Notes: generated by a model from the letters alone, not told the origin. Counted from the stretch's first letter, positions 11,600 to 33,400 are shown. The stretch is 50,465 bases of DNA from Psammoneis japonica (GCA_008632985.1 QPGO01000349.1:1-50465); one strand, 5' to 3'. Translations and numbers: made by a program.

Positions 11600-11989
11600 G
11601 ACGCGTTCCAGGTCTAGGTGGGACCTCGCACTGCTGAACTGTGACATCGACAGTTTTTTGAGTCTCGTCGTATGTCGCGCACGTAGATTTCTACGTGATT
11701 TTTTCGACATTTTGTGTCATTTTACGGTGCACTTGTTGAGCGATCCGTCCAACAACTTTTGACATTTTTTGTTACAGCGCGATTCTACAATGTCTTAAGA
11801 ATCGCGCAGGGCAGGCGAAGTTGCAAAAACATCGAGTGGTGAGAGGCATAATTGCACCACAAACTTGGCCGTTTATTTGATGTTGAAGATGAACATGTCC
11901 ATTAATTAAATTCTCGCACTACGGAGCTCGCACGTAGAATTCTACGGGCCCAATGTCACACGGAGTCCCACCCAGGGCTGGAACGCGTC
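11600..11989 (+). mobile_element. MITE family A, 390 bp, least TpA-eroded copy
   Basis: Termini GACGCGTTCCAG...GGTGGGAC / GTCCCACC...CTGGAACGCGTC; TSD TAAG (11596-11599, 11990-11993). Confidence 0.95.
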
Positions 11990-12697
11990 TAAGTGAATGT
12001 GGAAATGTGCGAAATTTACGCATTGTTGCAGTTTCTTTGCTGGATGGTTGGCCCTCATTTGTGGCCACACTCAATCCGCGGCGGCTCAAGTGAAAGTCCA
12101 TGTGCATGTGTTTTGCGCATTGATGCGGTTGTCTTCACCAAATGGTTGTTTGCAATTTGCTCAATTCCATTCTTTCTGGCCATGCTTCTTCTGAAGGGAC
12201 TTTGCTTGCTCCTTCTCCTGCTCCGCCATCTCCTCCTCGGTGAAAAATCTCCCCGACCGCTGTGGAATTGCCGCTGCACATGCTGCCTTTGGCTCCTCCA
12301 TGGTTGAGTCATCCTTGGGCGCGACTGTTGTTTCCACATGATGACTGTCCACTGTCGTGTTGTCTTGCACAAGTGCAGAAGTGACATCAAAATTTCCCGA
12401 AGCAAGGTCAAACGCCGCTCTTGCTTCTTCCAAGGTGATCTCCTCTTCGTCTTCCTTTTCATCAATGACTGAAGAAGTTCCGCATGTGTCTGCACCTTTT
12501 TCTTGTGTCCTCACCAGTTTTCTTTGGCTCGTCTGCCTTCTTTGTTTGTTGTTGCAAATCCATGTTTTCTCCATTGCTGCGTTTTCTGTGACGGTTGCGT
12601 TTGCGTTTCTTGGTTTGTTGGTTAAAATCCATTCGACGTTGTGTGACGCATGTGTGGATTTCTGCGCAATGTGCTGATCTAATCGAAGTGTTTTGTT

Positions 12698-15600
12698 TTA
12701 CGAAATTTCCGCATTTTTACGGTTGGGGTCGCTGGATGGTTGTGCAGTGGTTGAGCATCCTAATCCAATGTTTGCGCACCACATCAACATTTCTGCGTGC
12801 TGTTGCTGAGAAAAATGCGTGGCGCTTCTCTCCTTCATGAGTCTCATCAAGGCTTCGTAGCCTTCTGAGACCTTGCACTTTCGCAGGTCCTTGCTTGGTG
12901 GCTTTCGCATGAACAGCCCTTCTCTGGTCTTTACTCTGGAGAGCACAACATGCACCCAATTCTGAGTGTAGCTCCAAGAGTGTGCAAACAACTGCGGGAC
13001 TCCACTCCCTTGCAGTTTGTGCCCTGCAGTGGCATTGTTGATGACAAATGGCAGCTGGGTTGCCTTCAGTTGGAAAGTGTGCCTTTGTTTGTCGCCTTCT
13101 TCTAAAATTGGGCTGGGCTTGGCGATGCAAGCCCTGAAAGCATTTGTTTTTGGCTCAACTAAAAACTTCGCGGGGTCGATGCTTTTGTTGCAGTGTTCCA
13201 ATGCAACATGGTCTACCTGACCAGCAAGTGCAGCAGGAATGCCAATGTTGTTGTCTAAAGCCACCAGTCTTGGCTCCTGTCCTGGTTTGAGAACGACCTT
13301 GTCAACAGTGGCTTGCGTTCCGTTTGCTTGACCGTTTGCCACATTTTCGTTGAAAGGTGTCATGACTCTGCATCCTCTGTAAATTCGTAAGACTGGATCC
13401 ATTCTTCCTGATTGCATGACAACGTCTCCTTCACCACAGTTGTTCCAGAAGCTGTTGCAAACCGGAAATGGTTGGTAGAGTCTCGTGCCATTCTGCACCT
13501 GCAAGTCGTCACTGAAAATCAACATTGAGTCAAGGACGTCTCCATCTCTTCCATGCAGTGTTTTCACTCTTTTTTCGAACAGGCCAGCGTCAATTGCATC
13601 TCTGTCCTTATTTGCGTGCGTGGCATGGCGGAGGTCACTGGGCAGATCATCTTCGTTCTGAACTGCTCGTTCGTTGATGCACTCTATGTCATCAACTGCA
13701 ATCTCACCAGTGCGGAATCTCTTGAGCAGTTTTCCCCATGATGGATCGTCTTTAAACCTGTGTACACCACGAAGTTCCACGCAGCAGTTGATCCACTCGT
13801 GAAACTCGGGACATGCATCTTTGTGTGGTGGTTTCACTCCTTTTCCGACTGGCTCTAGTTGCCTGAGGTCACCTGCGAAAACAATGTTCATGCCACCGCA
13901 CGGCTTGCTTAATTCACTCTTCAACACTGTCAAATTCTCATGGAGTTTTTCTAGTTCTCTCTTGCTTGCAAAAGAAATCTCGTCTACCACCAAAAGTCTC
14001 GTGTCTGACCATGCTTCAATTTGCTCTTCGGTTGTTTGCTTTCTTCTCATGAGGTGTGCAACTCGGTGGATTGTGTCCCCTTTGAGAACAGTGGCAGCCA
14101 CTCCGGTCAGTGCAGTCACTCTGATTGTGCTTGTTGTGAACGGCTGCTCAACAAGCGAGCAACACTCTCTTCCGCATTCCACGACGAGGTGTTTTGTGGT
14201 TGATTTGCCACTTCCACCTGCACCATGTAAAAAACACACAAGTTGCAACGTTCCATGTCTTTGCACTTCCACGAGTTTCTTCAATCAGCGAAGGTTTGTT
14301 GCAAATTCGTGTCTGCCATTTCTCCTGTTAAGTCCATTGCGTGACGTCTCGTCTTGAAGAGCGTCTTGACAGTGAGTGAGCACAAAGGTTCCTGCCAGAA
14401 TTTCAAAGGCACGCTGCTGTTGCCTGTCCAGTCTTGCTTTCCCAGCCCAGTCTACGACACTCACTGCAGATCCGTTTGCTTGACGTACATCGACGTGTTC
14501 TTCCAGACCTGTTGCATCCTCAAACGACCTTCTTGTTCTTTGCGTTCTAGTCAGCATCACTCGAACAATGTCGTCTCTTGACAGTGGTCTGCTGTGGATG
14601 TGTTGTTGCACTCCTTCATTCTGGTCTTCCTCGTCGGTGTCATCGCCGCCCTCTAGATTCTCAAAAAGTTGTCGTTCATTGACCTGGCTTTCCTCGTTTG
14701 GTGGGTCAGTGTGCATGTCTGCCAAGCATTTGCAACCACCCATGTGCGAACCTTTCTGTCTTGCACGTTTACCGCTCAAATGCGCAGGAACAACTGCTTG
14801 GTCGCTCAACCCAATGTCATCGTCTTCTGGCTGCTCTGCCATTTCTTCCAAGAGTGCATCCAGTGGTTGACCCTGAACGGCGCCTGAAAGACCTTCTTCC
14901 TCATCACTTTCGCAACAGTCAAACGCAACGTCAGCAGGTCTAAATTGCTCTGTCTTTCTTTGCAGATCGTCAGATGCACTTTTGAGATGAAGGCAGTTGG
15001 ACTTGGCATCCTGTGGGTTCTGCAAGAAGTTCAAGTTTTCCTCTGTGACAACACCGGCTGCTGCGGAGAGTTGGAATTCACGCAGGCATGTGTGGGCCAT
15101 TGGTTTGAGTTCCGTCATTGTTCTGCAAGGCACAAACAAGGCCAATGCCAACTTGCAGTGCAATTCTTTGTCCAGTGTTGTTGGTTGCTGCGGATTCACA
15201 AGGCAACTGCCAAACTTGGCTGCATCAGGAAAATCACACTGAAGTGCTTTTAACAATCGCGGTTGCTGTCGCTGTCTGACACCTTGAAGAAACTCATTCT
15301 TTGTTGAATTGCAAGACGGGTGCCTGTGCGCTCTGTCATCGAACATCATCATGCCGTGTTCGTTTTTCTTTGTGTTGCGAAGAACTTCGCATTCACTAAA
15401 AAACGCAAACGGACTGAGATTCTCCAGTGCTGTTGGACGACACAGGCAGTGCAAGGCCTGGCATTGGAAGAACGGTGNNNNNNNNNNNNNNNNNNNNNNN
15501 NNNNNNNNNNNNNNNNNNNNNNNNNNNNNNNNNNNNNNNNNNNNNNNNNNNNNNNNNNNNNNNNNNNNNNNNNNNNNNNNNNNNNNNNNNNNNNNNNNNN

Positions 15601-18430
15601 NNNNNNNNNNNNNNNNNNNNNNNNNNNNNNNNNNNNNNNNNNNNNNNNNNNNNNNNNNNNNNNNNNNNNNNNNNNNNNNNNNNNNNNNNNNNNNNNNNNN
15701 NNNNNNNNNNNNNNNNNNNNNNGTAGTTCGAAGCACTTCGTCGTACGATGCAGCATCATCTTTCTGGGTGTCTTTTAGGATGTGCTTGGTCGTGCATTGA
15801 GTGGACAGTCCAGGCATCAATGAAGCAATGTTTGTGTTGCATGTCAGTTTTGATCTGCTCATTGCAGGGCACGACACGTTTTGAAAAGCATCGCACTTTC
15901 TCCTCTTCGGAACAACTTCCTTCACGCACCGACACGCAAAAGTCCCATCCCAGCTGAACCACTTTATCTGAGTGTCATCTGCGTTCCTTGCTGAATTATT
16001 TGGACACGAAGCAGCTGGTTGCCTGTGACGGCAGTCACCTGGTTTGAGCTCCTCTCGTTTCCTTTTCCTTGACAGCGCGTCCAGTTCCTCGTGTGGGGTT
16101 TTTTTATGCATTTTACGTAACTCTGCGCATTTGGGAAAACACGACTTCGTAACGTGCATGTGATGGTTGTAAGCTGCGTCCGGTGTGCATGCCTCTGTTG
16201 TCCCTTGCAGACCACTTCGCTGGCATTGTGCACACATTGCTTTTAGTCGCTTTGCATGGTTGTCTGGATGGCGAGTCAGGCCAGGTGCACGGTGCCGTGA
16301 CTGTAAAAAGCTTTCTACAAACTCGACGTTTGTCCAGTGCTTGGTGCAGTGATGACAACAAGCAAACATTCCGTTCTTCGACTGCTGGCCGTCTTTGTGC
16401 CTCAGGTTTCTTAGCTGTTGGTCGTCTGCTGCTTTTGGAGAGGTGCAACGCATTTTTGGTGCTGCACAGTCATGATCGAATGCTTCACGCAACGCGTTGG
16501 TGCTGAAGTCCTCGCTGCAGATTAATTCCGTGCTGCAGATCTTCTGAACTGTGTTGGTGAGGTGCTCAGCACCTTCGCGTCGGATCTGTCTCATTGGCGA
16601 ATGCAGTTTCTCTCTTGCATTGTTGATTGATGCGAGCCAGATCTGCATGTGTCCGTGTGCTGTCAGACGTCCCTGCTCCTCAACTGCGGCTAAAAATGCG
16701 GCTGGCCTGCCAGTGTAGAAGTTAAAGTTTTCTCTTGGTTGGTTGGTGCTCAGATCCCAACCCACCACCTCTTCCATTGCAATGTCAAACAAGCACTCGA
16801 GTGCAAAGGCTGTTAGACCGGGAAACTTTAGACGTGGTTCATTGCGTTGCTTGGCCCTGCCAGCAAGAATTTCGTCCGTCAGTTGTGTCACGTCTTCGTT
16901 TGGGTCCAGGATGACACCCGAGTGCAGTTGCACAAGAAACGAATTTGCATCGTCCGGACTGACGGTTAAGAAAATGCCACCCTGACCAAAATGATGCTGA
17001 CGAGTTTCGGCGTTTCTCCTCATTTTCTTTGCTGCTTCGTCGCTGTGTGGCAGAGACGCAGATGCAACGTCGAGTGCGCGCAAAAAGTGGTGCCCGAGTC
17101 CACAATCTCTTCTCTCGCCCAAGTTGCGATCACAAACAGCTCCATCCACATCGTCCACTGTCAGTTCGTTTGCAAACTGTGCAGCCTGATTCTTGTCCCT
17201 GACTTTCCACCCTGCGCTCTGTGGCATCCTTTGCTTCATTGTCAAGTTGCAGCATGTTAACACGAAGAGCTGCTCGTGGAAGTGAGGCTGGGAAATCCGT
17301 GCTGAGTGGTTGGCACAGTGTGCAAGGTTGGTGCCATCTGCAAGACTTCCGTCTTTCTTCATTCTCGTCTCATTGATTCCTCCTCTGCCAAAAGGAAACT
17401 GCAGCAGACACGCGTCAATGAAGTTGTTGCCTTTGAAATCACTCGCAGATTCTTCAGACAACTGTGCTTGCACCTCTAAATCAAATCCGTTGGCAGCAGC
17501 TTTGTGTGCAAGATCTTTGAAGCAGCCCAGGTTGCGCTGACCACCGGTCGCAGGAGACATGGTTCCATCAGGAAAGCAAATGTGAAATGACTCTGAGGTC
17601 TCAATGTTCGCATTTTCTCCTTCTTCTTTGCCGGTGCTGTCGACAAGCACGGGATTCCGCAGATTATGCCTGACTTCGTCTAGATTTGTCTGTTGGTGCA
17701 CCCACTCTTGGTTGTGGCACAACAGCCATTCCATCGCCCTTGGCATGCAGTGCGTCCCAACTCTGTTCTTTGAACGCGCAAGTTGTCTTTGCTCCGGAGT
17801 CATCTTTCCAGTCATCAGTGCAATCACATTCTGATGTAAATTCAGTGCGTCGAAGTGCACAACAGTTCTTACGATTCTTTGCATCTTGACTTTGTAGCAT
17901 GTCAGACTTCCCTGAAGCTTCTTCTGTTTGCCACCAAGGCAACTGAAGCAGCATCCGCATGTTTTCACTGGTGTGAGCATTGCCAATTCTACTTCGGTTA
18001 GAGACAACAGTTCGTGCAGCGGGGTGCCGAAACAGCAGTTGTTCGCTGTCGCGTACATTGGCACAACGGCTCTTCCCAGGCTTCTTCGGCATTCGCTGCA
18101 GCAAGTGAATCCGTCGACGCGTCGTCTGTCTTCCTGCACTGCGCATTGGGCGCGGGGAGAAAGCAGCAGGTCTTTGATCCAATCAGCATCTTCATGCTCT
18201 ACAGTGTGGCAGGACTTGAGACGATCAGATGCGCTGTTCCAGTCTGAAGGGGTGAGCAAGTTTCTTGCTGATTCCAGTGTTTCGAGCGGCAAGCAGCAAA
18301 CTTCTCTAGGTTTCAGCAGAACGTCACAGACCAAACATGCGTGTGGTCTAAATTCTCTGTCTCCATGTGGACAAAGCATCTCAAACTTTCTGTTGATTGC
18401 ATTGCAAACACGGGAGTTGGCCTCGTCCAT
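12698..18430 (-). pseudogene. Helitron-type Rep/HUH endonuclease - PIF1 helicase (RepHel, ~1910 codons, one in-frame TGA at 14285-14287, N gap 15478-15722)
   Basis: N-terminal Cys fingers and the LTEVELAML segment. Rep motifs FLTVSPD, VEEQGRLTAHGHMQIW (HUH) and CTTKHILK (YxxKY with both Tyr mutated). PIF1 motifs GAGGSGKS, TGVAA, VVDEIS, GDLRQL, GHKLQG and VVLSRV. The two listed ORFs are adjacent and in the same frame. Confidence 0.92.
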
Positions 18431-18504
18431 TTTAATTTAAGCTGATGCTTCAACTCGACAAATTTCAAGAAGTCACTCAGCAAAAACAGTTGTTTTTTCG
18501 GTGC

Positions 18505-19410
18505 GATCACCGTGAAGCTGCGATCGGTGCCATCCAATCACCACAGCGATGTGTGTTTTCTCGCCACCTGTGGCACTGCGACTGGTGTCGTCCAGTCACC
18601 GCAGTGGTTCTGTCCAGTTGATCAATGAACCGCGTCGGTGCTGCCCGTTCACCGCAGCGCTGTGTCGTCTTCTCACAACCTGTGCAATCAGGTCGCTGTG
18701 AGTGCTGCAACTGGTGCTGTCCAGTCACCGCAGCCGAGTTGATCAGTTGCTTGATGAACTGCGTTGGTGCCACCCGATCACCGCAGTGTTGTGTCGTGTT
18801 CTCACAACCTGTGCGATCAGGTCTCTGTGAGAGCTGCGACTGGTGTCGTCCAGTCACCGCAGCTGAGCTTGTGCGTTGTCTCACAACCTACGTTACGAGG
18901 TGCAGCGCTGTGTTGTTCACTCACAACCTGTGCAATCAGGTCGCTGTGAGAGCTGCGACTGGTGTCGTCCAGTCACCGCAGCCAAGTGAATCAGTTGCTT
19001 GACGAACTGCGTCGGTGCCATCCGATCACCGCAGCGTTGTGTCGTGTTCTCACAACCTGTGCGACCAGGTCTCTGTGAGAGCTGCGACTGGTGTCGTCCA
19101 GTCACCGCAGCTGAGCTTGTGCGTTGTCTCACAACCTACGTTACGAGGTGCAGCGCTGTGTTGTTCACTCACAACCTGTGCAATCAGGTCACTGTGAGAG
19201 CTGCGACTGGTGTCGTCCAGTCACCGCAGCCAAGTGAATCAGTTGCTTGACGAACTGCGTCGGTGCCATCCGATCACCGCAGCGTTGTGTCGTGTTCTCA
19301 CAACCTGTGCGACCAGGTCTCTGTGAGAGCTGCGACTGGTGTCGTCCAGTCACCGCAGCTGAGCTTGTGCGTTGTCTCACAACCTGCGTCACCAGGTCAC
19401 TGTGAGAACT
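18505..19410. repeat. Tandem array upstream of the RepHel start: ~120-128-bp subunits forming a 248-bp higher-order repeat
   Basis: Core CTGCGACTGGTGTCGTCCAGTCACCGCAG recurs at ~18577, 18705, 18834, 18953, 19082, 19201 and 19330; alternate copies are 248 bp apart. Confidence 0.95.
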
Positions 19411-20250
19411 GAGAACTACGGTTGGTGTGGCCCAATCACCGTGGTTGGATGCTTTTCGTTTCCCTTTGCGCAAAGGTTCTGTCACAAAAAAGTGAGACGA
19501 AAGTGTGCCTCTTTCACCTCGACGGAAGAGTGACGTGTGCGTTCCTCCCACGTCCTTCTTCGCAACAGACGCACGACATGCTGCTTAGTTTCGTTGACGT
19601 TGAACATCCCATGGGATGAGATTTGGATCTTGTTCAAGTTGTTTCGACCATCTGCTCTGAACATTCCATGGGGTAAGATTCGGATCTTGTTCAAGTTGGT
19701 TCGGCAATCTTGGTGGTGGGCGCAGCTTTGCGCAAATTCCGTAGAATCACAATTTAACGAGTGGCGGGGCAGTTGAGTTAGTCGTGTGGCAACAACAATG
19801 CGATTGACGTCATTCGTGTTTCCAAAGTGCGCGCGAATCCTCCAAATGGGTGATGGGCCCACCTTGGCTAACTGCCGGTGCAGTGTGTAGTGACAGCGAT
19901 GGCGTCGACCATTTGGTGACTAGATTTCGTGCGCGATGGCCGCGCGGCAGTAACGGCTGAAATGCACACGAAGCACGGATGGAATTGCACGTGATTTTAC
20001 GCATTTTCAGCAAACTTGGTGCGACTTTGCGTGCTCCGATCCTTGTGTCTGTTTTGTTCAAATTGAATCCATGCACCACTTGCAAGTGCTGACACCTGGA
20101 AGGTCACCTTGTTGCAGTTCGACGTGTTTGAATCTGGTTGCTGACGTTGCCAGTTCTCCTTGGCATGATGCGCGCAGCTCTGCTGGGTCTTTCTTGGCAC
20201 TTCTGAACGATCGCACTTTTTGTTCCCACAATTTCTCTCCGACTGATTCA

Positions 20251-20915
20251 ATGGCACGCAAAAGAAACACAACGACCTCCCCGGCTGCAAAAGCCAAAGT
20301 CGCCGAAACCAAACAGAAGAAGGCAAAGACGAAGTTTTCTGATGCTCTGTTGAAGAAACTAAGTCCGCCCCACAAGACCAACGGCTTGACCGACGACGAC
20401 CTTAAACCGGAAGACTGCCTTGCCAAGCACGGGTTCAAGCTTTCCAAATCCGCCGGTTCTGACGATGGCAGCCATTCCGACAAGGACGCCCTCCTGCGCT
20501 GCGCCACCGTCACTGTCGGCCGCAAGAAAGGCGTCATTTTTCGTCTCCAAGCCAAGAATCCCCTTTCAACCAATGTTTGGTCGGAGAAGGTTCTGTTTGA
20601 TGACCTTCGCAGCAGGACTCCGTGGGCGGCTCAAGTCGGATTCCACCCTTGCGCTGGCAGGTGGGTTCACGAGGGCGAGTTGCAGACGAACGCCAAGAAC
20701 TGCGCCGTGCGTCTCTTCTTCATCTTCCTCGAAGAAGTCCCAACCGATGCTAAAGTGCGCGGCCTCGGGAAGCACATTGCGAAGCAGCTGAACGATGACC
20801 CTGAGAACAACACCAAGGTCTTCGTTGAAGACGACTTCTTCTGGATGAAGGATGCTGTTTGGTCCGAAGTGATCGGCAACGAGGCAGCGCTTGCCGAGCT
20901 TCAGAAGGAAGGTGG
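20251..20915 (+). pseudogene. Hypothetical cargo gene (basic N-terminus, globular C-terminal part) disrupted by a MITE
   Basis: ATG at 20251 (MARKRNTTTSPAAKAK...), coding-like GC3-rich codon usage. The frame runs into the MITE at 20916. No family recognised. Confidence 0.55.
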
Positions 20916-21104
20916 GACGCGTTCCAGGTCTAGGTGGGACCTCGCACTGCTGAACTGTGACATCGACAGTTTTTTGAATCTCGTCGTATGTCGCGCACGT
21001 AGAATTCTACGTGATTTTTTGATATTTTGTGTCATTTTACGGCACACTTGTTGAGCGATCCGTCCAAAAACTTTTGACATTTTTTGTTACAGCGCGATTC
21101 TATA
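20916..21104 (+). mobile_element. MITE family A, 5' half (rest lost in N gap 21105-21436)
   Basis: GACGCGTTCCAGGTCTAGGTGGGACCTCG start, near-identical to the 11600 copy. Confidence 0.9.
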
Positions 21105-21589
21105 NNNNNNNNNNNNNNNNNNNNNNNNNNNNNNNNNNNNNNNNNNNNNNNNNNNNNNNNNNNNNNNNNNNNNNNNNNNNNNNNNNNNNNNNNNNNNNNN
21201 NNNNNNNNNNNNNNNNNNNNNNNNNNNNNNNNNNNNNNNNNNNNNNNNNNNNNNNNNNNNNNNNNNNNNNNNNNNNNNNNNNNNNNNNNNNNNNNNNNNN
21301 NNNNNNNNNNNNNNNNNNNNNNNNNNNNNNNNNNNNNNNNNNNNNNNNNNNNNNNNNNNNNNNNNNNNNNNNNNNNNNNNNNNNNNNNNNNNNNNNNNNN
21401 NNNNNNNNNNNNNNNNNNNNNNNNNNNNNNNNNNNNAACTGAGTGTCGATTGCAACTCAGCTTTCCTCTGTCTCTTCAAGTGTGCACCATCTCCGACGAC
21501 AACTTTGCGTTACCGCGAAGCAATGGCGAATTGAGTGGAGTAACTGGCGTGTGACGTCCAGCACAGTGACAGCAAAAAAACAGTTCAGT

Positions 21590-22265
21590 TTAGTTCTTAA
21601 GTGAAATTGGCCATTTCGCGACGGGCAAATGCTTCCGTTCCAAGTGTGTCGGAGTGGGACGTCGCATGTGCTGGCTGGTTGACTGAGAAGTCTGCTCTTT
21701 CTTGGTGTGCTTGTGGAAGACGAGATGTTTCACGTCTCCGCTGTGCCACAAAAAGTCGCCATCATGGTGATCCGCCGTGAAGGACTCGCACATCCACTCT
21801 CCCGCGTGCGACGCGAACAGCGGATCTAGCGCCACCACCACGGTCCCAGCACGACACAACTTCGAAAGCATCGCCTCTGCCTTCTGCTGTGTGTTCTTGT
21901 CGTCGACCATGCGGGAGTTGCAGTTGTTGAAGAACACCTTGAGTCCTCTCTTTTTCCACAAAGGAGCCAGCCTCTTGTCCAAGAATGACTTGTTGATCAA
22001 CTCTGACCTGGCGTTCGAGCGAAGGCCAGCATGATGAGCCCAACGTACAGCCTCTTGGTGACGATCGTGGTCGGCCTCGATGCTCACCATGGTGCAACGG
22101 CGACGAAGTAACTTGAGCCCGATGCTGGGTCCGGCAACTCCCCCACCCATGTCGACAGATGTGTCGCAGGTGTGATTCACGCCAAGAAGGCGTTCGTTCA
22201 AAAACACTTCGCTGCTCAAAGTGTGGGGGTTTGGGACGTGCAGCTCGCAGCCCGACAACAAGCAA
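21590..22265 (-). pseudogene. Class I SAM-dependent methyltransferase, DOT1 (H3K79)-like
   Basis: Motif I DTSVDMGGGVAG, acidic strand 2 VSIEAD, KSFLD, VFFNN (DOT1 'ifvNN') and GTVVVALDPL, in the order and spacing seen in DOT1-family domains. 5' end unclear. Confidence 0.55.
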
Positions 22266-22270
22266 GTGCT

Positions 22271-22445
22271 TCTCTCGATTGGGTTTCGACCCCACTCCCC
22301 TGGAGTCCGCCGGTCCCTGTCAACAGAGTTTTGCTTTGGGTGCTCTTGAGGCAACGGAAAGCAGACACATCTCTCGATCAGGTTTTGACCCCACTCCCCT
22401 GGAGTCCGCCGGTCCCTGTCGACGGAGTTCTGCTTTGGGCACTGT
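22271..22445. repeat. ~100-bp-spaced direct duplication between the methyltransferase and dioxygenase genes
   Basis: CTCTCGAT..GGTTT.GACCCCACTCCCCTGGAGTCCGCCGGTCCCTGTC.AC.GAGTT.TGCTTTGGG at ~22272 and ~22371. Confidence 0.85.
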
Positions 22446-22448
22446 TGA

Positions 22449-23567
22449 GACGACAGTGACAGTGTCAAGCAGCGGAACATTTGCCGGTGAGTTCGCACAC
22501 ACATTCTCTGCGAACACCGCATCGTCAATGCGCACCAGGACACACGAGAACGTGTTGAGGGCTCAACCGCCACTTCACAAGGCCCACCGCAGCGCAGCGA
22601 TCCGCAGCCGGCCAGCAGGAAAACATCCAAGATTGCTCGCCTCGTTCCACTGGCACCGTGCGCCACTAAGAGTCTCTCCGTACACTGCGTAGCCAACCGC
22701 ACTCTAGTTTGTAACGGCGACTACACTCAGCCTGCACCACCTTGTCTTGCTGACATTGACTTTGCCGAATTGGCTCCTCTGCTCGTCTGTGACCCTGTGC
22801 TCGATCTGAAGCCTTTCTTTGGCTTGGACGGTTGCCGCTGCGACAACACCTGCACCCTGCTGCCGCATTCTGCTGTGGTGTTCAGCTCCCCCAACCCAGC
22901 AGAACTAGTTGCTCAGTGCCAAGCGCTCGAAGCACTAGAATGCTGCACCGCCCAGTCCACCGTGCGCGGCAAACAACGCGTTGCCTTCATGGAGACGGAC
23001 AGGAGCAAGTGTTCCACGATTGGCCTGGCTGCCACGAGGGACGCTCGAATTTCTTGCAAGCAGCCTGGCATGGCCGACCAACACACTCACCACCTCACCA
23101 GACTTCTTTCATGCATGGAGCACCTTGTCAATGAGCACGTGGACTGTGCCATCCTTGGGGGCATCGCTCGTGTCAAAAAGTTTCACAACTGGAAATCCCT
23201 GGCACGGTCAGATGGCATTTTCTCCTCTCTGGCGGCTGGGTGCAATGTCTTCCTCAACGCCCATCGGGACCAGGACTTCTTCCTGTCAGCAGTCACCGTG
23301 GTGGGAGTCCCTCCATCCGGCAGCTGCAACATGAATGACGGGATTGTGGCGCACTTCTGCTTCCCTGCTGAAGGCATCTCCGTTGCACTCCGGCTTGGTG
23401 ATGTCATCATTTTTAACCCCACCAAGTGCCACTGCATCTCCAGCAGGACAAACTCAAACGACGAGTTCTTCTGCGTGTCGCTCTACCTGAAGAGTGCTGC
23501 AGTGGGCAAGAACAACAATTCAATCCCCCTTTCTCTAGAGGAAGAGACCATTCTCAGGCGACTGTGA
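22449..23567 (+). pseudogene. 2OG-Fe(II) dioxygenase, TET/JBP-like
   Basis: HxD (NAHRDQD), FCFP..GISVALRLGDVIIFNP, distal His (K-C-HCISSR) and terminal strand CVSLYLK. The frame is open from 22449 but no ATG was identified. Confidence 0.65.
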
Positions 23568-23789
23568 CAGCACAAAATAACTTGCTAAATTTGCGTAGAT
23601 TTGCTGACTTTCTGCACTCAGGCGACTGTGCAGGTGCCTGCTAATTCGCTAGATTTGCGTAAATTTACCGACTTTCTGTTCTTCCTCGTTCCCATTTTTC
23701 GAACCACAACTGGGGCTACGCCTTTCCAACTGATGCCACAGTTTCGCTGAAAAACACCAACACACTGCACTGCTAATTTACAGAGCACA

Positions 23790-25248
23790 CTACACGGCAA
23801 ACGTTTTGCCAGACGTAGAGCTTCTCCCCCCCGACTTGGGGAGTAGACGCGATTTCTTCTTCCGATTCATGGCACCCGACGTCGCCTTCCTCTTCTTCTT
23901 CTTCTTCTCCGATTCGTCCAAGTTGCATCTGCAGAGAAATTCCTCCCCGGGCATGATTCGCTTCGTGACTGCCAAGCACCCGTTGTTGTAGAACTCGCAG
24001 TTGTTGTCCGCGTGTTGGCTTGCCTTGATCTTCTTCTTGTCCTTGAACGACTCGGTGGCATCATTCACGCAGTGCATTCGAGGTAGAGTGGATGGGAATT
24101 CTTGTTCCCTGGACCGCTAAAATCAAGCGGTTTTGGCTCCACTGTGATGCAGTGGCCCTCGCTGTCACGGATGGTGGAGCAGTGCACGCTGTGGTCTTCT
24201 CCAAACTTGCTGTCGTGGTCGTACCACGAGCAGCTCCTCGTCGTACCAGGCACCCTGGGGCCCACGTAGATTCCAACCGTGCTGCCTTTCTGGAACTGGC
24301 GCAAAGCAAAAAAACCAATGCCTGCGCCCCTCCATTGCGATGCGCGTAGCTCGCCCACCTCCACCTCCTTGGGGCCTGCGGAGCGAATGGACTTTTCGAG
24401 GCAAAACAACGCAGGTTAAGTGACACGGCGCCTCGTCCAAATGTGCACACTTCTGCACTTACTCTCTTCACGAGACAGACCAGTGCGAGCGACCACCCCG
24501 CTTCAAAAGCCTCGACGGCGGTCTTGAACACTTTGTTGCTCTTCGGCGTCGAGTCTGGGATGCCCCTCTCGCCGACTTCCGTTCGGCACCTCCACACCCA
24601 CTTGCAGTGTTCGCCATGAGCATTCGCGACGGCTTCAGGGTCGCTCCTGATGCACCCCAGTTCTCCCAGCACGGGGAACCAGAGGTCGGGATTGTTCGGT
24701 GCATCCTTCATAAGGCACATGGACTCCTGGAATTTATCGGATTTTTCGTGCCGCAACACCCAGCCACACAAGTCGAATGACGGATCGTTGGGGTCCGGAA
24801 ATTGCTTTCCTTCTTCTTCCTCTTCCGCCGTTGCTTTCGCGTCCACTTTGGCCGCGGGCTTGGCTGCCTCCTTGCTTTTGCCGCTGCAAAAAGACAGGAC
24901 CTCCGGTTTCACAAAGGTGGCCTGATCACCCACCAACTCGATCTTGTGACCGGCCTTGAGGAGCTGCTCGGCGGTGCAACCCAGCTGCTGTGCTTCATTC
25001 CAACCACAAATTTGAAAGGTTGGCTCCGGCGGCACGGCTTTCTCACTCTTTTCAGTTTGGGACTGCGCCGGCTTCTCCGACATCCTTGCGCATTCGGACT
25101 CGACGGACACACCCTCGGCACTTCCCTTGGTGCCAAGTGCAGTCATGGCAGCTGCCGCCACGCCTTCGGCGCCCGTGAGTTCTGCCATGACTTCCGGAGC
25201 TGCTGCATCCTCTGCTTTGCCAGACGCAACGATGTTGTCCTCCGCCAT
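23790..25248 (-). pseudogene. SET-domain lysine methyltransferase-like gene; intron 24462..24392, 1-bp deletion near 24080
   Basis: GAGIGFFALRQFQKGSTVGIYVG (SET-N), LYL(G)MHC(Y)VND...NNCEF and TKRIMPGEEFLCRC(Y)N (SET-C). A GTAAGT donor, CTTAAC branch site and AAAG acceptor splice exon 1 (ATG 25248) in frame. Lys-rich tail. Confidence 0.75.
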
Positions 25249-25761
25249 TCTAGCGCCGTGATGACAGAGCTGCACTCACTGCTGTGTGGTGTGCTGCTTT
25301 GTTCCAGCCATTGGCGATCCACATCCTTCTGCGCACGTAAACGTGTGACACTTCGCACCAAATTCCACGCAGCGCGTCTGCACCTGTCTACGTCCGTCTT
25401 CACCACTGCATGCACTGCGGCACTGCAGCGCACCCTTTCAAACCTTCATTGATGTTTATTTTTTCCTTCCTTTTCCTTTTCTCTTCTTCTTCTGTCTGGC
25501 TGGGAGGAACTGCTGCATGGCCGGACTTGTCCGTTGTGGCAAACAAAGAGTTAAGCCGGCAAGACACTCGAGAATGGCGCAGAAAGAAAAAATGTCAAAA
25601 GTTGTTGAATGGATTGCCTGATGATTGTGCTGCAAAATGACACAAAATTTTGACAACATCGTGCAGAAATGCACGTGCGCGACATGCGGCACAATTCAAA
25701 AAACTGTCGATGTCACAGCTCAGCAGTGCGAGGTCCCACCTGGACCTGGAGCGCATCGACA

Positions 25762-28720
25762 GGCACTGCAGAAGTTCCATGTGACTGAGACCAGCACGGC
25801 TGGCCATCATCATGCAAGTGACTCACTTTTCATGAAGGGTCAGCACAAGATGTGTGCAGCACCAACTGTGGTTGACTCCAAGCAAATGCTGAAGCATCAA
25901 CATGTTTTTTTGGATTTCTGGGTTTCCATTCTTCCAGATTTCCTGAATTTCCAGGTTTCCAGCCAAAGGGTGCATGGTGTTTGTCACTGCCTGGTGTCAG
26001 CGCACACACAAGAAGCAAGGAGACAAGGCAAGCCCATGCTTCATTCGGCTGCATGTTTTCATCAATGCAAAAGGAAACATTGTCTGTGATGTGTGCTTTC
26101 TTGTGCAACTCTGTTTCTCGTTTCTCCAGGAGAACTTTTGCAACTGCTCTGACCTTGTCACAAGGCATCTCAACAGAAAAAATTCCAAACAGTTTTTGTC
26201 TTTAAGAGATGAGAGTTTGTGAGGAACAAGATGAGTTGGCAGCTTGGCTTGACAATGAAGAGGGGCAACGATGTTGAGATTGCTGAGAAATGTGAAGAGG
26301 GACAACAGCTTTAAGAAGATGGCAGAGGACAAGTTCAGCAGAGCAACACTTTACAAGGTTGCCCATGATCTGAGAAATGTGCACAACATCTGTGACAGTC
26401 TCTTCCCACTCATGGCACCTGACAAAAACAAAGTTGTCTTTGAGAGCCTCGTTGACAAAAGGAGCATCTTGAATCTCTGAAAGTGGCGGAGATGCATGGA
26501 GATGGAGAACGATTGTGTGCATTGGTGCACAACAGCAAGTGCCAGCAGAAGTCCACCCCACCACCCGCCACATTGACCTTGGGATGAATTTTTTCCCAAT
26601 TGGAGAGAACGGTCGTTGACCGGTGGATCTTGAGATGCTTTCTGCTGCAGTCATTGTGCGGCCCACAGCCAACACAGTGGGAGCACTGGGGCCATTGGAT
26701 GTGCGCCAAAGCCAAAGCACAATCTCCTGCATTGTCAAGCAAATGACATCATCCTCAAGTTGAACATTGGCAGACATGCAGTCACGAAGATGTTGCCCAC
26801 ATTGAGCCAACTCCTCTGTTGTGATGCAAATTTGCCGCCATGCCAGGAAAAAGCCAACACTCAGGAAAGAAGCAAGGCCAGTTCTCTGTGAAAACTGCAG
26901 CTCAAACAACGAGAGTGACAAGTCAGCAACGTTTCCCACTTCCTTGCAGACAAAAGACAACTGGAGACACATTTCTGACTTCAGATGACAAGAATGAAGT
27001 GCGAGTTGCAAAAGTTCAAAGCTTTGGCACACTGGCTCATTCATCAAGGTGAGTGCTCAGGGTGGGAAAGACAGCTTTGCACAGAAAATGCAACAGTGCC
27101 GTCATTGCACTGCACCCAATGCAGGTTGATGCATCACCCCAAAACATTCACAAAACTTGAGAAACATGGATGGTCAACAAGCAAGTTTGCACAATGTTGG
27201 GTCTTGGGTCAAGGCAAAAGCTGGAAATGTCTCGGGAAATTGGCAGAAAAGCTGCTTGAGCATGCGGCAATTCTCACTTGACTTGATTGCACCGTGGTTC
27301 CAGAGCTTTTGTCATGATGTCATGACAACATTGAAGCTGCAAAGTGCTGCTTTTTGTCAAAGCAATGTGTCATTGCAAGCCCCGCAGCACTGCTGCTGCC
27401 ACCAACAAGCCCCAAATTGTGAGAAAATGATGCTGCAAACTTGGAGCAGCAAGAGAAGAAGATTGCTGGCAGCAGCCCTTGACAAAAGAAAGCTCTCTGG
27501 CTGTTGGAAGACATGCACAGAGAAGGCTTTTTGAAGCACCCACAAGCAGTTGTGGAGCCCTTTGCTGCAGCTTCAATGCTTTTGTCTTCCTTCTGTTGCA
27601 AACTCAGCTTGTTTTGCTGGGCAGCACAATGGGCACTCTGCCAAAATGGGAGTGTGTTGGGAGCATCATGCTTGAGAGAAACATCTCCACACATCTCACA
27701 CATGTGCCTTGCACGTCATGCAGGAATTCATCCATTGATCAACCAAGCAGACTTTGCAGCACAGGCAGGCATTTTGCTGCTGGAATTGTGCAAGTGTGCC
27801 TTCCTTGTGCAGATCATTTTGCAGCAGCCCATTGGCCCTTTTTGAATCATTGCTTCACAAACAAAAGACCACAAAATGACCCCACCGGAGTTTTTGCCAT
27901 TGCAGGGCAACAAAGAAAAGGCTTTTGTTGTCCTTGAGAAGTCAACAAGAAACTTGCCATTCTTGTGCCTCTTTTTCTTCTTCTTCTTGCTCTTGCAACA
28001 CAAATGGACAACACTTCTTTCCAAATTGAGCAATCCCCCCCAAGTTCTTGACAGGTCATCTGACTTCACTCTGTGAACTTGTTCTGTGAGGTTTCAAATT
28101 GTCTCCACTGACTCATGAATTGACACATGTTCCCCTGGTGCAAAAAATTTTTTTTGCCCAGAGCTCAAGTGCTTGGTTGGCTCTGGTGGATGTTTCTTTT
28201 TCTCCTTTGCAATTTTTTGGCTCATCGTTTTGAGCAGAGCCAGCGTTGCTTTCTTTCATTGGTGCTGCTCCACTCAATTTTTTGCACAACTTTGAACTCT
28301 CAACATTTGCTTTCACTTTCCAAGCAATTGCCAGTCTTTCTTTCTGCCAGGCCAGGAGAGCAAGATCCCCAAGTGTGTTGCTCCTTTTTTGTTGCAGTTG
28401 GCTCTGACTTGTGAAGACCATCATTGACTTGAGTTTCCAAAAAAAGAAAATGCGGCAAAGAAAATGGCACGGTGCTCTGGTTTGTCCCATGTGCAAGAAC
28501 AAAAAGTTGATGCTTGCAAACACTGTGCTTTTGGCGCTTCAATCTTTGTTCAAAACGAACAAAAAAATGCTGCCAGCAAGTTGGAGTTCTGTCATGAGCA
28601 AGCTCTTTGGAGAATGTGATCAACTCTCCATGCCACATTTGTGTGTGCTCATTGCCCAAGATGCTCCCACTTTGAAATTCTCGGAACAACACGGAAGAGA
28701 TTTGTCAGTGGCCTGACGCA
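25762..28720 (+). pseudogene. Heavily degraded coding sequence of unknown function, apparently continuing from ~5650-5840 across the nested insertion
   Basis: Removing the insertion gives ...WKTWLPAQDL*QALQKFHVTETS... with TGA probably from CGA. Several protein-like fragments follow (MAEDKFSRATLYKVAHDLRNV; IIDLSFQKKKMRQRKWHG). No family recognised. Confidence 0.35.
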
Positions 28721-28735
28721 GTTTCCTGAGAGATG

Positions 28736-28815
28736 TCCAAAACAAACAATTTCAACTCAGAGACTGGATGTGAGCTCCAAAACAAAACAATTTCAACTCA
28801 GAGACTGGATGTGAG
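28736..28815. repeat. ~40-bp tandem duplication
   Basis: TCCAAAACAAA(A)CAATTTCAACTCAGAGACTGGATGTGAG occurs twice. Confidence 0.9.
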
Positions 28816-29047
28816 TTCTGGCTGTCTTTGAGCAAGAACTCAAAAAGCAAAATGTTGACCTGTTTTAAAAATGAAAAGAAGCAGCCACTGACATCATGTC
28901 AACAGTGTGGGACATTTTTGCACACACACAACCACTTTTGTGGCTTCATTGTGCCTCTTCTTGACACTCAGAATGTTGGAAAATCCATGATGTGCATGAC
29001 TGCACTCAACAAATGCCAGAGACTGCAACTGCACAAAAAAAGAACAA

Positions 29048-29443
29048 GACGCACCCCAGCTCTGGGTGGGACCTCGCGCCACTGAATTGTGGCACAATTG
29101 GTTCTTGTCATCCGCCCCATGTTTTGTGCGCACATTTCTGCATGTTCCATCATAAAAAATTGCTCCACACTGCCTGTTTTGCAAAGCCAAAGGCTTTCTG
29201 TCATCTGCATTTGTGACAATGAAAATGCGCTGGGCACATTCTTCAATGTCTGAAGAATGTGCCCGGGCATGCTGCAAAGAATGCACTTTAAGTGTGGAGG
29301 AGGAGATGCGTTTGCAAAATTGCCTCTCATTCTGTTGGCAATCATCCATGTGTGCATTGCTTGACAATTTTGCTGTGGAGCTCGCATGCAGAATTCTGCG
29401 GGCCCAATGTCACAAAAAGTCCCACCCAGGACTGGAGCCATTC
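29048..29443 (+). mobile_element. MITE family B (same TIR type as A, different core), 396 bp
   Basis: GACGCACCCCAG...GGGTGGGAC / GTCCCACCC...CTGGAGCCATTC; TSD ACAA. Confidence 0.85.
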
Positions 29444-29559
29444 ACAATGAGAAAGTTGTTGAGTTGACAGCCTGATGATTGTTCTGCAAACTGGTGCAAA
29501 ATTGGACCAAAGTTGTGCAGAAATGTGCTTGACTTCTGTGCTGAAACATCAACGACATG

Positions 29560-30445
29560 TTCCAGCCATGCGTGACCCAAATCGTGCACAAAAACAACAT
29601 TTGCACAATTTTTGCATGGTCTCTGACTTGTGAACAATTTCTCTCCACCAAAAGCACAGATTTGCACACCAGTGTTGCAAAACATTGTTTTTGTGCTGTC
29701 CATGTTTTTCATTGCAACAAATGAGTCACAACACAATGGATGATTTTTGGCAAAAATGTTGCCGTCATTGGGGTGTCAAATTAATTTTTTTTTCTGCAGG
29801 AGACCTTCCAGCAGGCACTCTGCTTGCAAGCAAAAATGTGCGTCCAATGCACTGTCGTGCAATCAGCACTGAGTCTGCTGAGGAAGTTTGTGACACATGT
29901 CCCATGAGGACTTGAATGCCAAAACAAAACCCAAAGTCTAATTTAAAGTGCTGCTGCACTTCCACCCTGCAACTCCGGCAACAAGCCAACCCACACTCCC
30001 AATTCCAGCCATGCGTGACCCAAATCGTGCACAAAAACAACATTTGCACAATTTTTGCACGGTCTCTGACTTGTGAACAATTTCTCTCCACCAAAAGCAC
30101 AGATTTGCACACCAGTGTTGCAAAACATTGTTTTTGTGCTGTCCATGTTTTTCATTGCAACAAATGAGTCACAACACAATGGACAATTTTTGGCAAAAAT
30201 GTTGCCGTCATTGGGGTGTCAAATTAATTTTTTTTTCTGCAGGAGACCTTCCAGCAGGCACTCTGCTTGCAAGCAAAAATGTGCATCCAATGCACTGTCG
30301 TGCAATCAGCACTGAGTCTGCTGAGGAAGTTTGTGACACATGTCCCATGAGGACTTGAATGCCAAAACAAAACCCAAAGTCCAATTTAAAGTGCTGCTGC
30401 ACTTCCACCCTGCAACTCCGGCAACAAGCCAACCCACACTCCCAA
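29560..30445. repeat. 443-bp tandem duplication covering the 3' junction of the LINE
   Basis: TTCCAGCCATGCGTGACCCAAATC...CCACACTCCCAAT starts at 29560 and 30003; the two units are nearly identical. Confidence 0.95.
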
Positions 30446-33400
30446 TGCACCAGGTGAGGCAGGAGCACACAACAATTGGCCAAGATCAGCATCACCCGAG
30501 GGTGATGCCGCGCCAAAGCAGCTTGCGATGGTGTGCGTGCCTCTGACGGCCAGACGCCGGGCCTCTCGGATGCTCGACTCAAACACTGGCTTTGCCATGG
30601 CGAGCCAGTTTCGGAGTCTGTGGGTGGAATGAGTGAGATGTTCATCTGCTGAATCAAACAACTGTGCTCGGTCACGGGCCAAGTGCTCGTCTGCCCTTGA
30701 GCAAATTTCTTTGACCTCCGCCTCTGTGCCCCGTTGTTGCAAAGACTTTCTTGTCTCAGAATTGTGCCCGTGTGCTGCATCATCATGGGAGTCCCACAAT
30801 TCCCGCCATTGTGACCACACATGACTGCCAGTCATTGCCGCCCAGTCCAATCTTTTGTCTTCATCGGACAAGGAGCAATGCAAGCCAGAGGACACCAAGC
30901 ATGACGTTTGTGCCTCGTTCCACAAAGAAGAAAAACGCCTGCTGAAAATGTGACGCCAGCCAATGTCATCTTGAGATCGAAACAACTCTGTGATGCTGTG
31001 GTGGACGTGGGTGGAACAAAGCAATTCCTCGTTGAACCAACCTTCCAAGGCATGCAACAACAGGTCTCGCACAGACGGGGACATGTGCATGTCGTCGCAT
31101 TTCTTCCACAATCCTTGGAGAAACGTGCGCCGCCACGATTCATTGTGAGTGCAATGCAGAGTGTGATCCCTGTCTTCAAGGGGGTGTTGGCAATGTGCGC
31201 AGCAGTCGGGGCATGCAGGATTGTGTCTGTGGACAATCTTGTTCATCGGTGGCAAATCTTGGACCAATTTCACGGTGCTCATCTTTCGTCAGACATTGCA
31301 AGACATCAATTTGGAATGCACTCTCCAATCAATGGATTCGCACACTGAGTCAGACCATCCACACTTCTCCTTCATGTGTTGTGTCAAGGCTGGGCTGGAA
31401 GCTTCGCAACAGAGAACTGATTTAAACTTTGAGTTCACCGATGCCGACTGGACGTTTGGCAATGCAGAGCAATGGGGCATGCGGGGGGCCATTGAGGCAT
31501 CTCCAGTGCATTGACCCTGAAACAAACCTGCCAATTCGTCAGCTCCCTGATGGCTTTTAATCCACTTCATGTCAACGACATTGCTTGCAGAGTGTCCGTC
31601 ATGTTGGGCCTCCAAACTTGTCAATGAAACCAAGATCTCATGGACAACATCCCAGTCCAGTGCCAACGTGATGGCGACATGGTTCCGAAAATGAAAATCT
31701 TGTTGTCGTTGTGAATCAGACGTGCTCCAGCTCTGGGTGGGACCTCGCACTGCTGCACTGTGACATCAATGGTTTTTTGGATTGCGTTGCATGTCGCGCG
31801 CGCACATTTCTGCGTGTTTTGTTCTACGAAATTGTTTCATGGTCCCTGTTTTGCGAAGCCAAAGGCTTTCTATTTTCAACATTCATGAGAACAAAAATGC
31901 GCTGGGTGTGTTCTTTAATGTCTGCAGAACATGCATGGGCAAACTGTCAATTGTGTGCTGCAAGTGTGAAGGAGGAGATGCGTTCGTAAAATTGCCTCTT
32001 TTTCTGTTGGCGATCATTTGCATTTTCGTTGCAGCACAAATTTGCCACGGAGCTTGCACGTAGAATTCCATGGGCCCAATGTCACACGGAGTCCCACCTG
32101 GGACTGGAGCCCATCATCATCTGCGTCCAATGGAAGCGGTGGGGGAGAATGAAAGTTGGCAACATTGTGCACCACAGAGGAGTTGTCACAATGGGCGGCC
32201 ATGCCATGAGAAAAACAACAGTTGCAAAATTCCAGCACTCGAATGAGAAAGCATGGGACTGACAAGAAGCCGCGTGCTTCTGCTTGATGCAAGGACAGTC
32301 GGAATCCGAAGACCGGTCCAGCACAATCTGCAAGAATCACTCCATTGACCGCCAGCGTCCACCCAAAGGTGCCACTGGAATGCAACACAGAACCATCACT
32401 TCCCACTTCTGCTCGGAAGCGCCAAAGGGAACCCACCATTTCCAGTGCTGACACATGCATGGTGAGGTCACTGAACAGGGCAGAGACTCCCACAGTGACA
32501 AAGACATCAGCCATTCGCAGAAGTCCCCGAGGACAGGAGTTGTTGGGGTGGGTTGTGGTGGAGCGCACTCGCCATCTGCCATCTAGAGTCGTGTCCACCA
32601 TGACAGGTGATGCCAGTGGAGACAGGTCTGGAACTGTTTCTAACTGCTGCAGGGTTTCAGTGCAAGCATCCTTGACTGGAAACACTTGACAACCCGCTTC
32701 AGATCGGACACACAAAAACTCTTCGGAGGGCTCACAACAGGTGGGATGAAGCATGTGCATCTTGGAGGCAGGGACGGTCCATTGACCCAAAGGGGTTCAT
32801 GGGATGGAAGTGCCTTCATTGCACAAAAGAGCCATGGCTCGGCTCCATTGTTTCCAGGCGCGAGGTGACGGGCGTGCCTGTTTGACTGGATTGAGTGACG
32901 ACATGCTGCTCATGAGGGAAGTTTGCCCTTTCAACTTGAGTTTGTCCAAATGTCTGCCATCGGGAAGAGTGACGTCCGAGACAGTGAGCACTCGCAGGAA
33001 CAGCCTGCAACAATTCACCCACCGAATCTCTTTTTCAGAGAAAAGCCCAGACTCCAGTGCCGCATCCACAACATGTTGATCATTCTCTTGTCATGCAGGA
33101 AGGATGCCAGTGAAATCCAAATCGAAGTGTGCGTCAATGTGAGCAAGAAAGGACCTCATTGACACAAACCATTTGGACTCGGAGTGCGGGAGTTTGGTGC
33201 TCACATCTTTCAGAAAACTGGACCCTGTTCCAAGCTGGAGCTGTGTTCATGCCACTGCAATGCGGGACAAGGTGTGAGGTTGACCAGTGCCCCGCCAATG
33301 TCGAAGGAACTACAAACACCTCCTGAGGTGCACGGGCCGTGTGAAACATCCCGCTTGGTGTTGCGCTTACAACCACACTTTGCAAGTGTAGTTCGCATGG

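Follow-up and report, generated by a model that had tools for sequence, protein, structure and literature searches.

A TET/JBP-type dioxygenase gene and its putative chromatin-enzyme companions as candidate cargo of a high-copy DNA transposon in Psammoneis japonica

What are three compact genes that resemble enzymes acting on DNA bases and histones doing in the midst of transposons, and do they belong to one of them? The question is raised by positions 21590-25248 of a 50,465-nucleotide stretch of Psammoneis japonica DNA (GCA_008632985.1, QPGO01000349.1:1-50465; the window, here, is this whole stretch). An earlier reading made from the sequence alone (the sequence-only reading) had placed there genes for a DOT1-type methyltransferase, a TET/JBP-type 2-oxoglutarate (2OG)/Fe(II) dioxygenase and a SET-domain protein (genes 1, 2 and 3, together the trio), and had proposed that they form a mobile anti-silencing toolkit. 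We find that gene 2 is a TET/JBP-type enzyme, judged by its homologues and its predicted structure, and that the block is repeat DNA within a single TTAA-bounded insertion. The explanation we favor, with a probability of roughly 0.55, is that 20254-25248 is the cargo of a high-copy DNA transposon, a long Helitron nested in a piggyBac element, and that this cargo serves anti-silencing, by analogy with known transposons.

The window is eukaryotic in character, with many repeats and few stop codons. Because TAA and TAG stops disappear along with TpA, spurious long open reading frames (ORFs) are common in such TA-poor DNA and ORF length is weak evidence for a gene; our gene calls in 21590-25248 rest instead on homologues and on GC content by codon position. 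On that footing the three adjacent genes hold up, in a block that runs from the stop codon of gene 1 (21590) to the ATG of gene 3 (25248), and each shows the motifs that had been named for it: gene 1 has VDMGGGVAG and VFFNN, gene 2 has H165-x-D167 and H221, and gene 3 has GAGIGFF, VNDA and GEEF. One codon-position GC signature is common to genes 1 and 2, all three gene 3 exons and a further ORF at 20254-20915.

Gene 2 and the repeat status of the block

The identification of gene 2 carries the argument. Its ORF of 265 amino acids occupies 22770-23567, and residues are numbered from 22770; homology continues upstream to about 22656 (residues 6-54 of the relative P0002, E 6.6e-4 in a local search), in a frame that is open from about 22656 but has no in-frame ATG before 22770. 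An exhaustive search of protein representatives returned 747 relatives at E ≤ 1e-3, of which 457 reach ≤ 1e-10 and 6 reach ≤ 1e-30 (best E 2.8e-63), whereas a word-index search had found no homologue among 807 candidates. From the 150 best relatives we picked 49 by hand, favoring long coverage, and aligned them with the window protein (n = 50). G85, H165, D169, D211, H221 and K241 are invariant in this alignment, D167 is kept in at least 90% of it, and the iron triad HxD...H is intact in the window copy (H165-R-D167 with H221). An AlphaFold (AF2) model built on the 50 sequences has a pLDDT of 92.3 and a pTM of 0.89, and Foldseek fills ranks 1-22 with TET-family chains (CcTet, 7vpn, at 1.0e-7; TET2, CMD1 and NgTET1), the first other family being FTO at rank 23. 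With VIA-align, the model scores Z 16.8 against TET2 (root-mean-square deviation 3.2-3.3 over 230-231 aligned residues), 14.5-14.8 against NgTET1, 12.9-14.4 against CMD1 and 13.1-14.2 against CcTet, and at most 12.1 against AlkB, FTO and other 2OG oxygenases. Among the 30 nearest neighbors by Atlas features, 24 belong to the Tet_JBP set. Homologues and model together thus bear out what the sequence-only reading had said of gene 2, and had proposed to check by structure prediction: it is a TET/JBP-type dioxygenase. With the solved enzymes TET2, NgTET1, CMD1 and CcTet (PDB 4nm6, 4lt5, 7cy8 and 7vpn) it shares the double-stranded beta-helix, the TET-type elaborations and the HxD...H triad, but sequence identity to them is only 10-12%, and unlike them the 265-residue modeled ORF has no Cys-rich or other accessory domain. 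Candidate substrates of the enzyme are 5mC, T and 6mA in DNA. The Pfam model Tet_JBP (PF12851) has no match to the window gene 2 at E ≤ 1, and the gene 2 family profile has none among PDB sequences at E ≤ 1.

That the genes behave as repeat DNA, as had also been claimed, is shown by contig depth. We aligned to 19500-27500 the contigs of one public DNA run, which contains 0.43 of the window's sampled words. Of the 2852 contigs that aligned, 696 are at least 99% identical to the window, 1025 fall between 95 and 99% and 1131 between 90 and 95%. Word depth, summed over contigs, ranges from 1771 to 5259 in all bins of 19500-25373, barring those over a miniature inverted-repeat transposable element (MITE) and a run of Ns, and past 25908 it drops to 234, 283, 61 and then about 31. 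The reference for unique sequence is a 921-bp contig without differences at 26526-27446, with a depth of 30.7, while the depth of near-identical unitigs over the trio is 649-1298. Two points temper what this can say for a high-copy element: the run may be the source sample of the window assembly, and summed contig depth is not a copy number, such that the figures, read loosely, indicate tens to more than 100 copies of the block. The trio block is nevertheless repeat DNA, and a depth tens of times higher than on the unique DNA beside it speaks against single-copy genes, which would have counted against the toolkit idea. Transitions make up 75 of the 93 listed kinds of change between window and contigs. 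We rejected three joints, 20959/25585, 20980/25612 and 20986/25660, as evidence of excision, as they reflect MITE-to-MITE similarity.

The companion genes

Gene 1 is a class-I S-adenosylmethionine (SAM) methyltransferase. Its sole detected homologue, P0001 (244 residues; 53% identity, E 2.1e-56, one match among 360 candidates), is similar to 21623-22219 only, within an ORF of 370 codons. The GC content at first, second and third codon positions is 0.55/0.42/0.69 in this domain and 0.55/0.56/0.65 in the upstream two fifths of the ORF, which also overlap a tandem repeat of 2 x 99 bp; because the pattern of low second-position and high third-position GC is missing there, the upstream part is probably non-coding. 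Nothing in 21400-25800 corresponds to the N-terminal ~42 residues of P0001, and gene 1 is truncated at its N-terminus in the window copy. VDMGGGVAG and VFFNN, both conserved in P0001, we take to be class-I motif I (DxGxGxG) and the DOT1-type FxNN. By Atlas features, 15 of 30 neighbors are in the DOT1 set, and the nearest are eukaryotic DOT1-annotated clusters; the top cluster (score 0.95, 197 of 256 features shared) is mostly diatom and carries PF08123 on 53% of its 236 members, and PF08123 is found on 8 of the 10 rows shown, while phage and giant-virus clusters are also among the neighbors. On the other side, the Pfam DOT1 model (PF08123) has no match at E ≤ 10 to either the window domain or P0001, the best PDB match of a two-sequence profile is a weak one to an O-methyltransferase over motif I (E 0.083), and a single-sequence fold of P0001 is too poor to use (pLDDT 32.3). 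Of the DOT1-type claim, then, the class-I methyltransferase stands, and its protein-language-model neighbors and presumed motifs hint at a DOT1-like enzyme. Gene 1 would share with DOT1 and its giant-virus homologues the class-I fold, motif I, a presumed FxNN and a genomic parasite as holder; it differs from DOT1 enzymes in the missing Pfam match and, in the window copy, the missing N-terminal segment. Giant-virus homologues of the DOT1 H3K79 methyltransferases are described in a preprint (Grau-Bove et al., 10.1101/2021.11.30.470311). We found no relatives of gene 1 or gene 2 in viral contigs or prokaryote genome contigs, and no report of a transposon-borne DOT1 among the literature matches listed.

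Gene 3 may encode a PR/SET-like protein. Exon 1 (25248-24463) encodes an N-terminal region of 262 residues whose fold was not recognized, with no PDB sequence match at E ≤ 5. A predicted intron of 71 nt (24462-24392, GTAAGT..AG) would then bring in the frame of a SET-like N-terminal block, and the PR/SET-like domain extends over 24391-23790, with a one-base frame slip at 24078/24079 into the frame of the C-terminal block, which ends at the TAG at 23790. The only contig that covers this site has an extra C behind 24078 (depth 958.5 of 958.5), which joins both SET-like blocks in one frame; the frameshift is therefore private to the window copy or its assembly. The order of motifs, GxG...YxG, then VNDA, then GEEF, is that of a PR-type SET domain, and a search of exon 2 against 177,635 PDB sequences gave two matches only, both to PR/SET proteins and neither significant (MECOM, E 0.42; PRDM16, E 1.1). 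Exon 3 has no PDB sequence match, a word-index search of longer proteins found no exon 2 homologue among 55 candidates, and neither exon tested matches a SET or PR Pfam model at E ≤ 10. The positions of the SET catalytic motifs read VNDA and GEEFLCRC, and neither the His nor the C-terminal Tyr is there, which is true of many PR domains too. What remains of the SET claim is thus the motif order and two sub-significant matches to the right family, without a Pfam match or the conserved catalytic NH and Tyr.

The ORF at 20254-20915 may be a fourth cargo gene. Its product has a basic, lysine-rich N-terminus, its 3' end is cut by a MITE at 20916, and contig depth over it is 3100-4154. It has no match in PDB (E ≤ 5), PHROGs or NCBIfam, and Pfam gives none on the longer ORF 20071-21054; PHROGs and NCBIfam likewise yield nothing meaningful for any of six pieces searched. 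The 99-bp repeats that separate genes 1 and 2 contain no tRNA-like gene.

The enclosing element and its carrier

Where the block sits can be read from a MITE. The family concerned is 391 bp long, with 25-nt terminal inverted repeats (TIRs; GACGCGTTCCAG...GGTGGGAC) and target site duplications (TSDs) that are variable 4-mers (TAAG, GGAA, TCCA, TCCA and TGTC were seen); the window has at least 11 copies or fragments, and a contig depth of 170,788 over the MITE, against about 31 on unique DNA, indicates that the family probably exists in thousands of copies. One copy is split into two halves that lie 19.5 kb apart (Table 1), in matching orientation, in the order expected for an insertion, with a common break at TTAA and a common outer TSD, TGTC. 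As this MITE is split exactly at its internal TTAA within a shared outer TSD, 6035-25560 entered one TTAA site, and the sequence-only reading was right to place the trio inside piggyBac termini. The left TTAA is intact at 6031-6034, the right one has decayed to CAA, and the terminal inverted repeat of the composite element is 5 nt if exact (CCGGC/GCCGG) and 7 nt if transitions are tolerated. In order, 6035-25560 contains the piggyBac transposase gene, a MITE, the Helitron RepHel gene, 248-bp repeats, the fourth ORF, a MITE, a run of Ns and the trio. It was also correct that the trio lies upstream of the RepHel (18430-12698, minus strand), with the N run at 21105-21436 in between, into which contigs extend from the MITE at 20916-21104 with MITE sequence. 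The RepHel frame is broken by an in-frame TGA (14287-14285) and a 245-base N run (15478-15722). The element records transposition in layers, with two MITEs and probably a Helitron nested within one TTAA insertion, and is a clean case in which such events can be ordered in time.

Table 1. Features of the window discussed in the text; a dot or a blank means that no strand is given.
Feature	Position	Strand	Basis or remark
Composite element, TTAA-bounded, 19.5 kb	6035-25560	.	Left end CCGGCCC, right end GCCGG
Split MITE, second half	5841-6034	-	Ends at internal TTAA 6031-6034; TSD TGTC just outside
Split MITE, first half	25561-25757	-	Ends at decayed TTAA; outer TSD TGTC at 25758-25761
piggyBac-type transposase ORF, 893 aa	7327-10008	+	PF13843 DDE_Tnp_1_7, E 5.1e-40
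Nested complete MITE, 391 bp	11600-11990	+	25-nt TIRs, TSD TAAG
Helitron RepHel	12698-18430	-	DUF6570 E 1.3e-8, Helitron_like_N E 6.9e-7, PIF1 E 3.1e-16
Tandem repeat, ~3.5 copies of a 248-bp unit	18525-19397	.	Between RepHel and cargo block
Fourth cargo ORF (candidate), function not assigned	20254-20915	+	Codon-position GC like trio
Nested MITE copy	20916-21104	+	Runs into N run 21105-21436
Gene 1, class-I SAM methyltransferase domain, putatively DOT1-like	21590-22237	-	Homologue P0001, motifs
99-bp tandem repeat, two copies	22260-22454		In head-to-head spacer of genes 1 and 2
Gene 2, TET/JBP-type 2OG/Fe(II) dioxygenase	22656-23567	+	Homologues, fold, iron triad
Gene 3, putatively PR/SET-like	23790-25248	-	Exons and one predicted intron, motif order, weak PDB matches
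MITE copies	11600-11990, 20916-21104, 29042-29443, 31713-32117, 35538-35925, 36204-36594, 39378-39769, 42014-42403, 42743-43086, split 5841-6034/25561-25757

Further tandem repeats, with units of ~112-148 bp, follow the piggyBac gene at 10167-10425; both these and the 248-bp repeats may be subterminal repeats of elements. A derivation of the MITE from the window's piggyBac was considered and dropped, given that its TSDs are variable 4-mers and not TTAA. Outside the composite element, an ORF of 1453 residues at 964-5325 (minus strand) has no Pfam match at E ≤ 0.01.

Which element owns the cargo is a more difficult question. We suggest that the carrier is probably a long Helitron of about 12.0-25.4 kb on the minus strand, nested in the 3' part of the piggyBac element, with its cargo (the TET/JBP DNA-base dioxygenase gene, a divergent, putatively DOT1-like class-I methyltransferase gene, a PR/SET-like gene and the fourth ORF) upstream of the RepHel. 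Contig depth is continuous from 19500 into the trio, and the observed geometry is exactly what would result if a Helitron had inserted into the short 3' portion of a piggyBac. One locus elsewhere points the same way. Our comparison set consists of 46 metagenome loci with a gene 2 relative, most of them short; the loci of 3 kb or more have 93 ORFs that reach 180 residues, of which 75 were scanned with Pfam, leaving out L010, L011, L013 and L028, whose ORF layouts match those of scanned loci. In one locus (L001), DUF6570, Helitron_like_N and PIF1 at 1694-7511 are followed on the same strand, at 8207-10087, by P0003, which is 40% identical to gene 2. This is a second, independent pairing of RepHel and TET, and the locus has no piggyBac match. 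Other loci are neutral toward the Helitron or speak against it. One (L004) has instead a Plavaka-type transposase (E 6.5e-16) beside the gene 2 relative, the features lying at 158-3592 and 5651-7267, and in nine loci (L020, L022, L030, L031, L032, L033, L036, L039 and L042) the relative adjoins a DEAD/ResIII/Helicase_C helicase gene, a recurrent pairing that may represent another mobile element. By analogy with fungal TET-bearing transposons, one can envisage that the dioxygenase would oxidize 5-methylcytosine (5mC) on the element's own DNA, removing cytosine methylation and countering silencing, and that both methyltransferases, if active, would write histone marks that oppose heterochromatin, such that new copies would escape silencing.

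A number of observations weigh against this explanation. No window protein matches a DOT1, Tet_JBP or SET model in Pfam (E ≤ 1; E ≤ 10), Tet_JBP touches only two of the 50 gene 2 family members (best E 0.003), and gene 3 is without NHSC and ELxF/YDY, which we take to be the SET catalytic motifs. A RepHel is present in only 1 of the 46 loci with a gene 2 relative; tblastn found no relatives of gene 1 or gene 3 in those loci and the 75 scanned ORFs hold no DOT1 or SET match, so the trio is not established as a conserved unit. The sequence-only reading had asked whether the trio is syntenic with RepHel in diatom genomes; in the 46 metagenome loci, a gene 2 homologue is paired with it in L001, its companions in none. 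GC at third codon positions (GC3) is 0.65-0.79 in the cargo genes, 0.50 in the RepHel and 0.57 in the piggyBac transposase gene, a difference from both transposase genes that fits capture from the host or another source. Nor did we find, downstream of the RepHel, a perfect hairpin with CTRR that would mark a Helitron end; as the Helitron termini were not located, piggyBac may be the carrier. Lastly, all three genes are damaged in the window copy, and 9 of the 14 listed codon differences from common variants change the residue. In this small sample of 14 there is no sign of purifying selection. With gene 1 truncated, gene 2 lacking an ATG, gene 3 frameshifted and the RepHel interrupted by a nonsense codon, the window copy cannot itself perform the proposed function, and it is probably an inactive, decayed member of its family.

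The strongest competitor, less probable in our judgment but to be taken seriously, is that a giant piggyBac element owns the cargo and that the RepHel belongs to a separate Helitron that nested later between transposase and cargo. Termini are demonstrated only at 6035 and 25560, where TTAA bounds the element; the right one is 312 bp from the gene 3 ATG and is also where high depth stops, and the missing CTRR hairpin speaks for this competitor too. However, whatever inserts into the short 3' portion of a piggyBac will in any case come to lie near its right terminus, the exact terminal inverted repeat is just 5 nt, L001 pairs the gene 2 homologue with a RepHel and no piggyBac, and piggyBac is outside the 11 transposon lineages that Kojima 2025 (PMC12730594) reports with TET/JBP genes. 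A different reading of the enzymes, which we consider improbable, would make genes 1 and 2 a DNA base-modification pair in place of a toolkit for DNA and histones: the dioxygenase would hydroxylate a methylpyrimidine, and the DOT1-like methyltransferase would act on DNA to make the substrate of the dioxygenase or to cap its product. The two genes stand head to head at a distance of ~400 bp, a layout that suggests common control from one region, the DOT1 membership of gene 1 is unproven by Pfam, and its neighbors include the phage and giant-virus clusters mentioned above; but its closest feature neighbors are eukaryotic DOT1-annotated clusters, and a methyltransferase stands beside the dioxygenase in none of the 46 related loci. 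That the trio consists of ordinary host genes, or fragments of such genes, caught among transposons and useless to any mobile element would suit their distinct GC3 and the failure to find the trio conserved among the 46 loci, but is very improbable given a depth that exceeds that of the unique DNA alongside by a factor of tens, the hundreds of contigs that have diverged, the position of the genes within a single TTAA insertion, and the gene 2 relatives that adjoin RepHel or Plavaka transposases elsewhere.

TpA depletion, known systems and meaning

The sequence-only reading had taken the trio to be repeat DNA partly because it shows the same TpA erosion as the transposons. The depletion is real in the trio, where TpA observed/expected is 0.23, but the ratio is 0.15 over the whole window, so depletion by itself is no sign that the trio is repeat DNA. 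It is 0.19 in the RepHel, 0.30 in the piggyBac gene and 0.04-0.05 in the older repeat tracts at 25758-33000 and 44000-50465. Observed/expected is 1.57 for TG/CA and 0.65 for CpG, with ranges of 1.57-1.73 and 0.39-1.0, respectively. When the MITE copies are compared, TA gives way to CA and/or TG, but never CG, at 9 dinucleotide sites, while 23 sites have the ordinary CpG-decay pattern and 7 are ambiguous; because of the first class, a TpA-directed transition process alongside CpG decay appears real. An artefact of base calling was considered and dropped, as window and contigs differ about equally often in either direction (21 A>G against 22 G>A, and 16 C>T against 16 T>C), in a run that may be the source sample.

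Could the two be connected? One might imagine that gene 2 oxidizes thymine in TpA on repeats, and that the products 5-hydroxymethyluracil (5hmU) and then 5-formyluracil (5fU) are the source, or the targeting mark, of the erosion of TpA to CpA/TpG. 5fU mispairs with G. We regard this as a long shot. In dinoflagellates (PMC11572971), a host TET/JBP homologue makes 5hmU on transposons, which makes thymine a realistic substrate for the family. The likeness is that of a protist TET/JBP enzyme tied to transposable elements, but the dinoflagellate enzyme is host-encoded and its mark silences transposons, whereas gene 2 is transposon-borne.

The closest known systems are fungal. TET/JBP-encoding DNA transposons of fungi include Helitron1, Helitron2 and Plavaka families, according to Kojima 2025 (PMC12730594). 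The window resembles them in that a TET/JBP gene rides as a passenger with the transposase of a DNA transposon, which is a RepHel in the window and a Plavaka-type enzyme in L004, and the role proposed there is likewise escape from methylation-based silencing. The element described here differs in several respects. A fungal host is not evident, with the diatom Seminavis robusta as source of the nearest named relative and with mostly diatom Atlas neighbors; two further genes of putative chromatin type and the fourth ORF accompany the dioxygenase; the unit lies within piggyBac-type termini; and gene 2 escapes detection by the Pfam Tet_JBP model. Kyakuja, Dileera and Zisupton transposons with TET/JBP genes were reportedly described by Iyer et al. 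in 2014. Transposon-borne TET/JBP genes, Helitrons included, are in print for fungi and transposon-borne SET genes for Harbinger elements. The latter are alike in having a SET-type gene as cargo, but they belong to another superfamily, and here the candidate gene is PR-like, stands among several cargo genes and lacks what we take to be the catalytic residues. Our literature search for TET/JBP, diatoms and transposons together found nothing. With TET-bearing Helitrons already known in fungi, what appears new is the host group and the multi-enzyme cargo, the unity of the cassette and the DOT1 and SET assignments being putative.

If the cargo is what we suggest, the idea of the TET transposon would be extended from fungi to a diatom-like alga, with a richer cargo, and a single high-copy element would hold a self-contained counter-silencing module that acts on both DNA and nucleosomes. 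The gene 2 family is in any case an abundant and clonable set of enzymes, with 747 representatives, that standard Pfam annotation misses. Its member here lies amid very strong TpA depletion, so that experiments can ask whether base oxidation is linked to the mutation of repeats; were that link true, it would amount to repeat-directed point mutation with a novel chemistry, coupled to a mobile module of three enzymes for editing chromatin and DNA.

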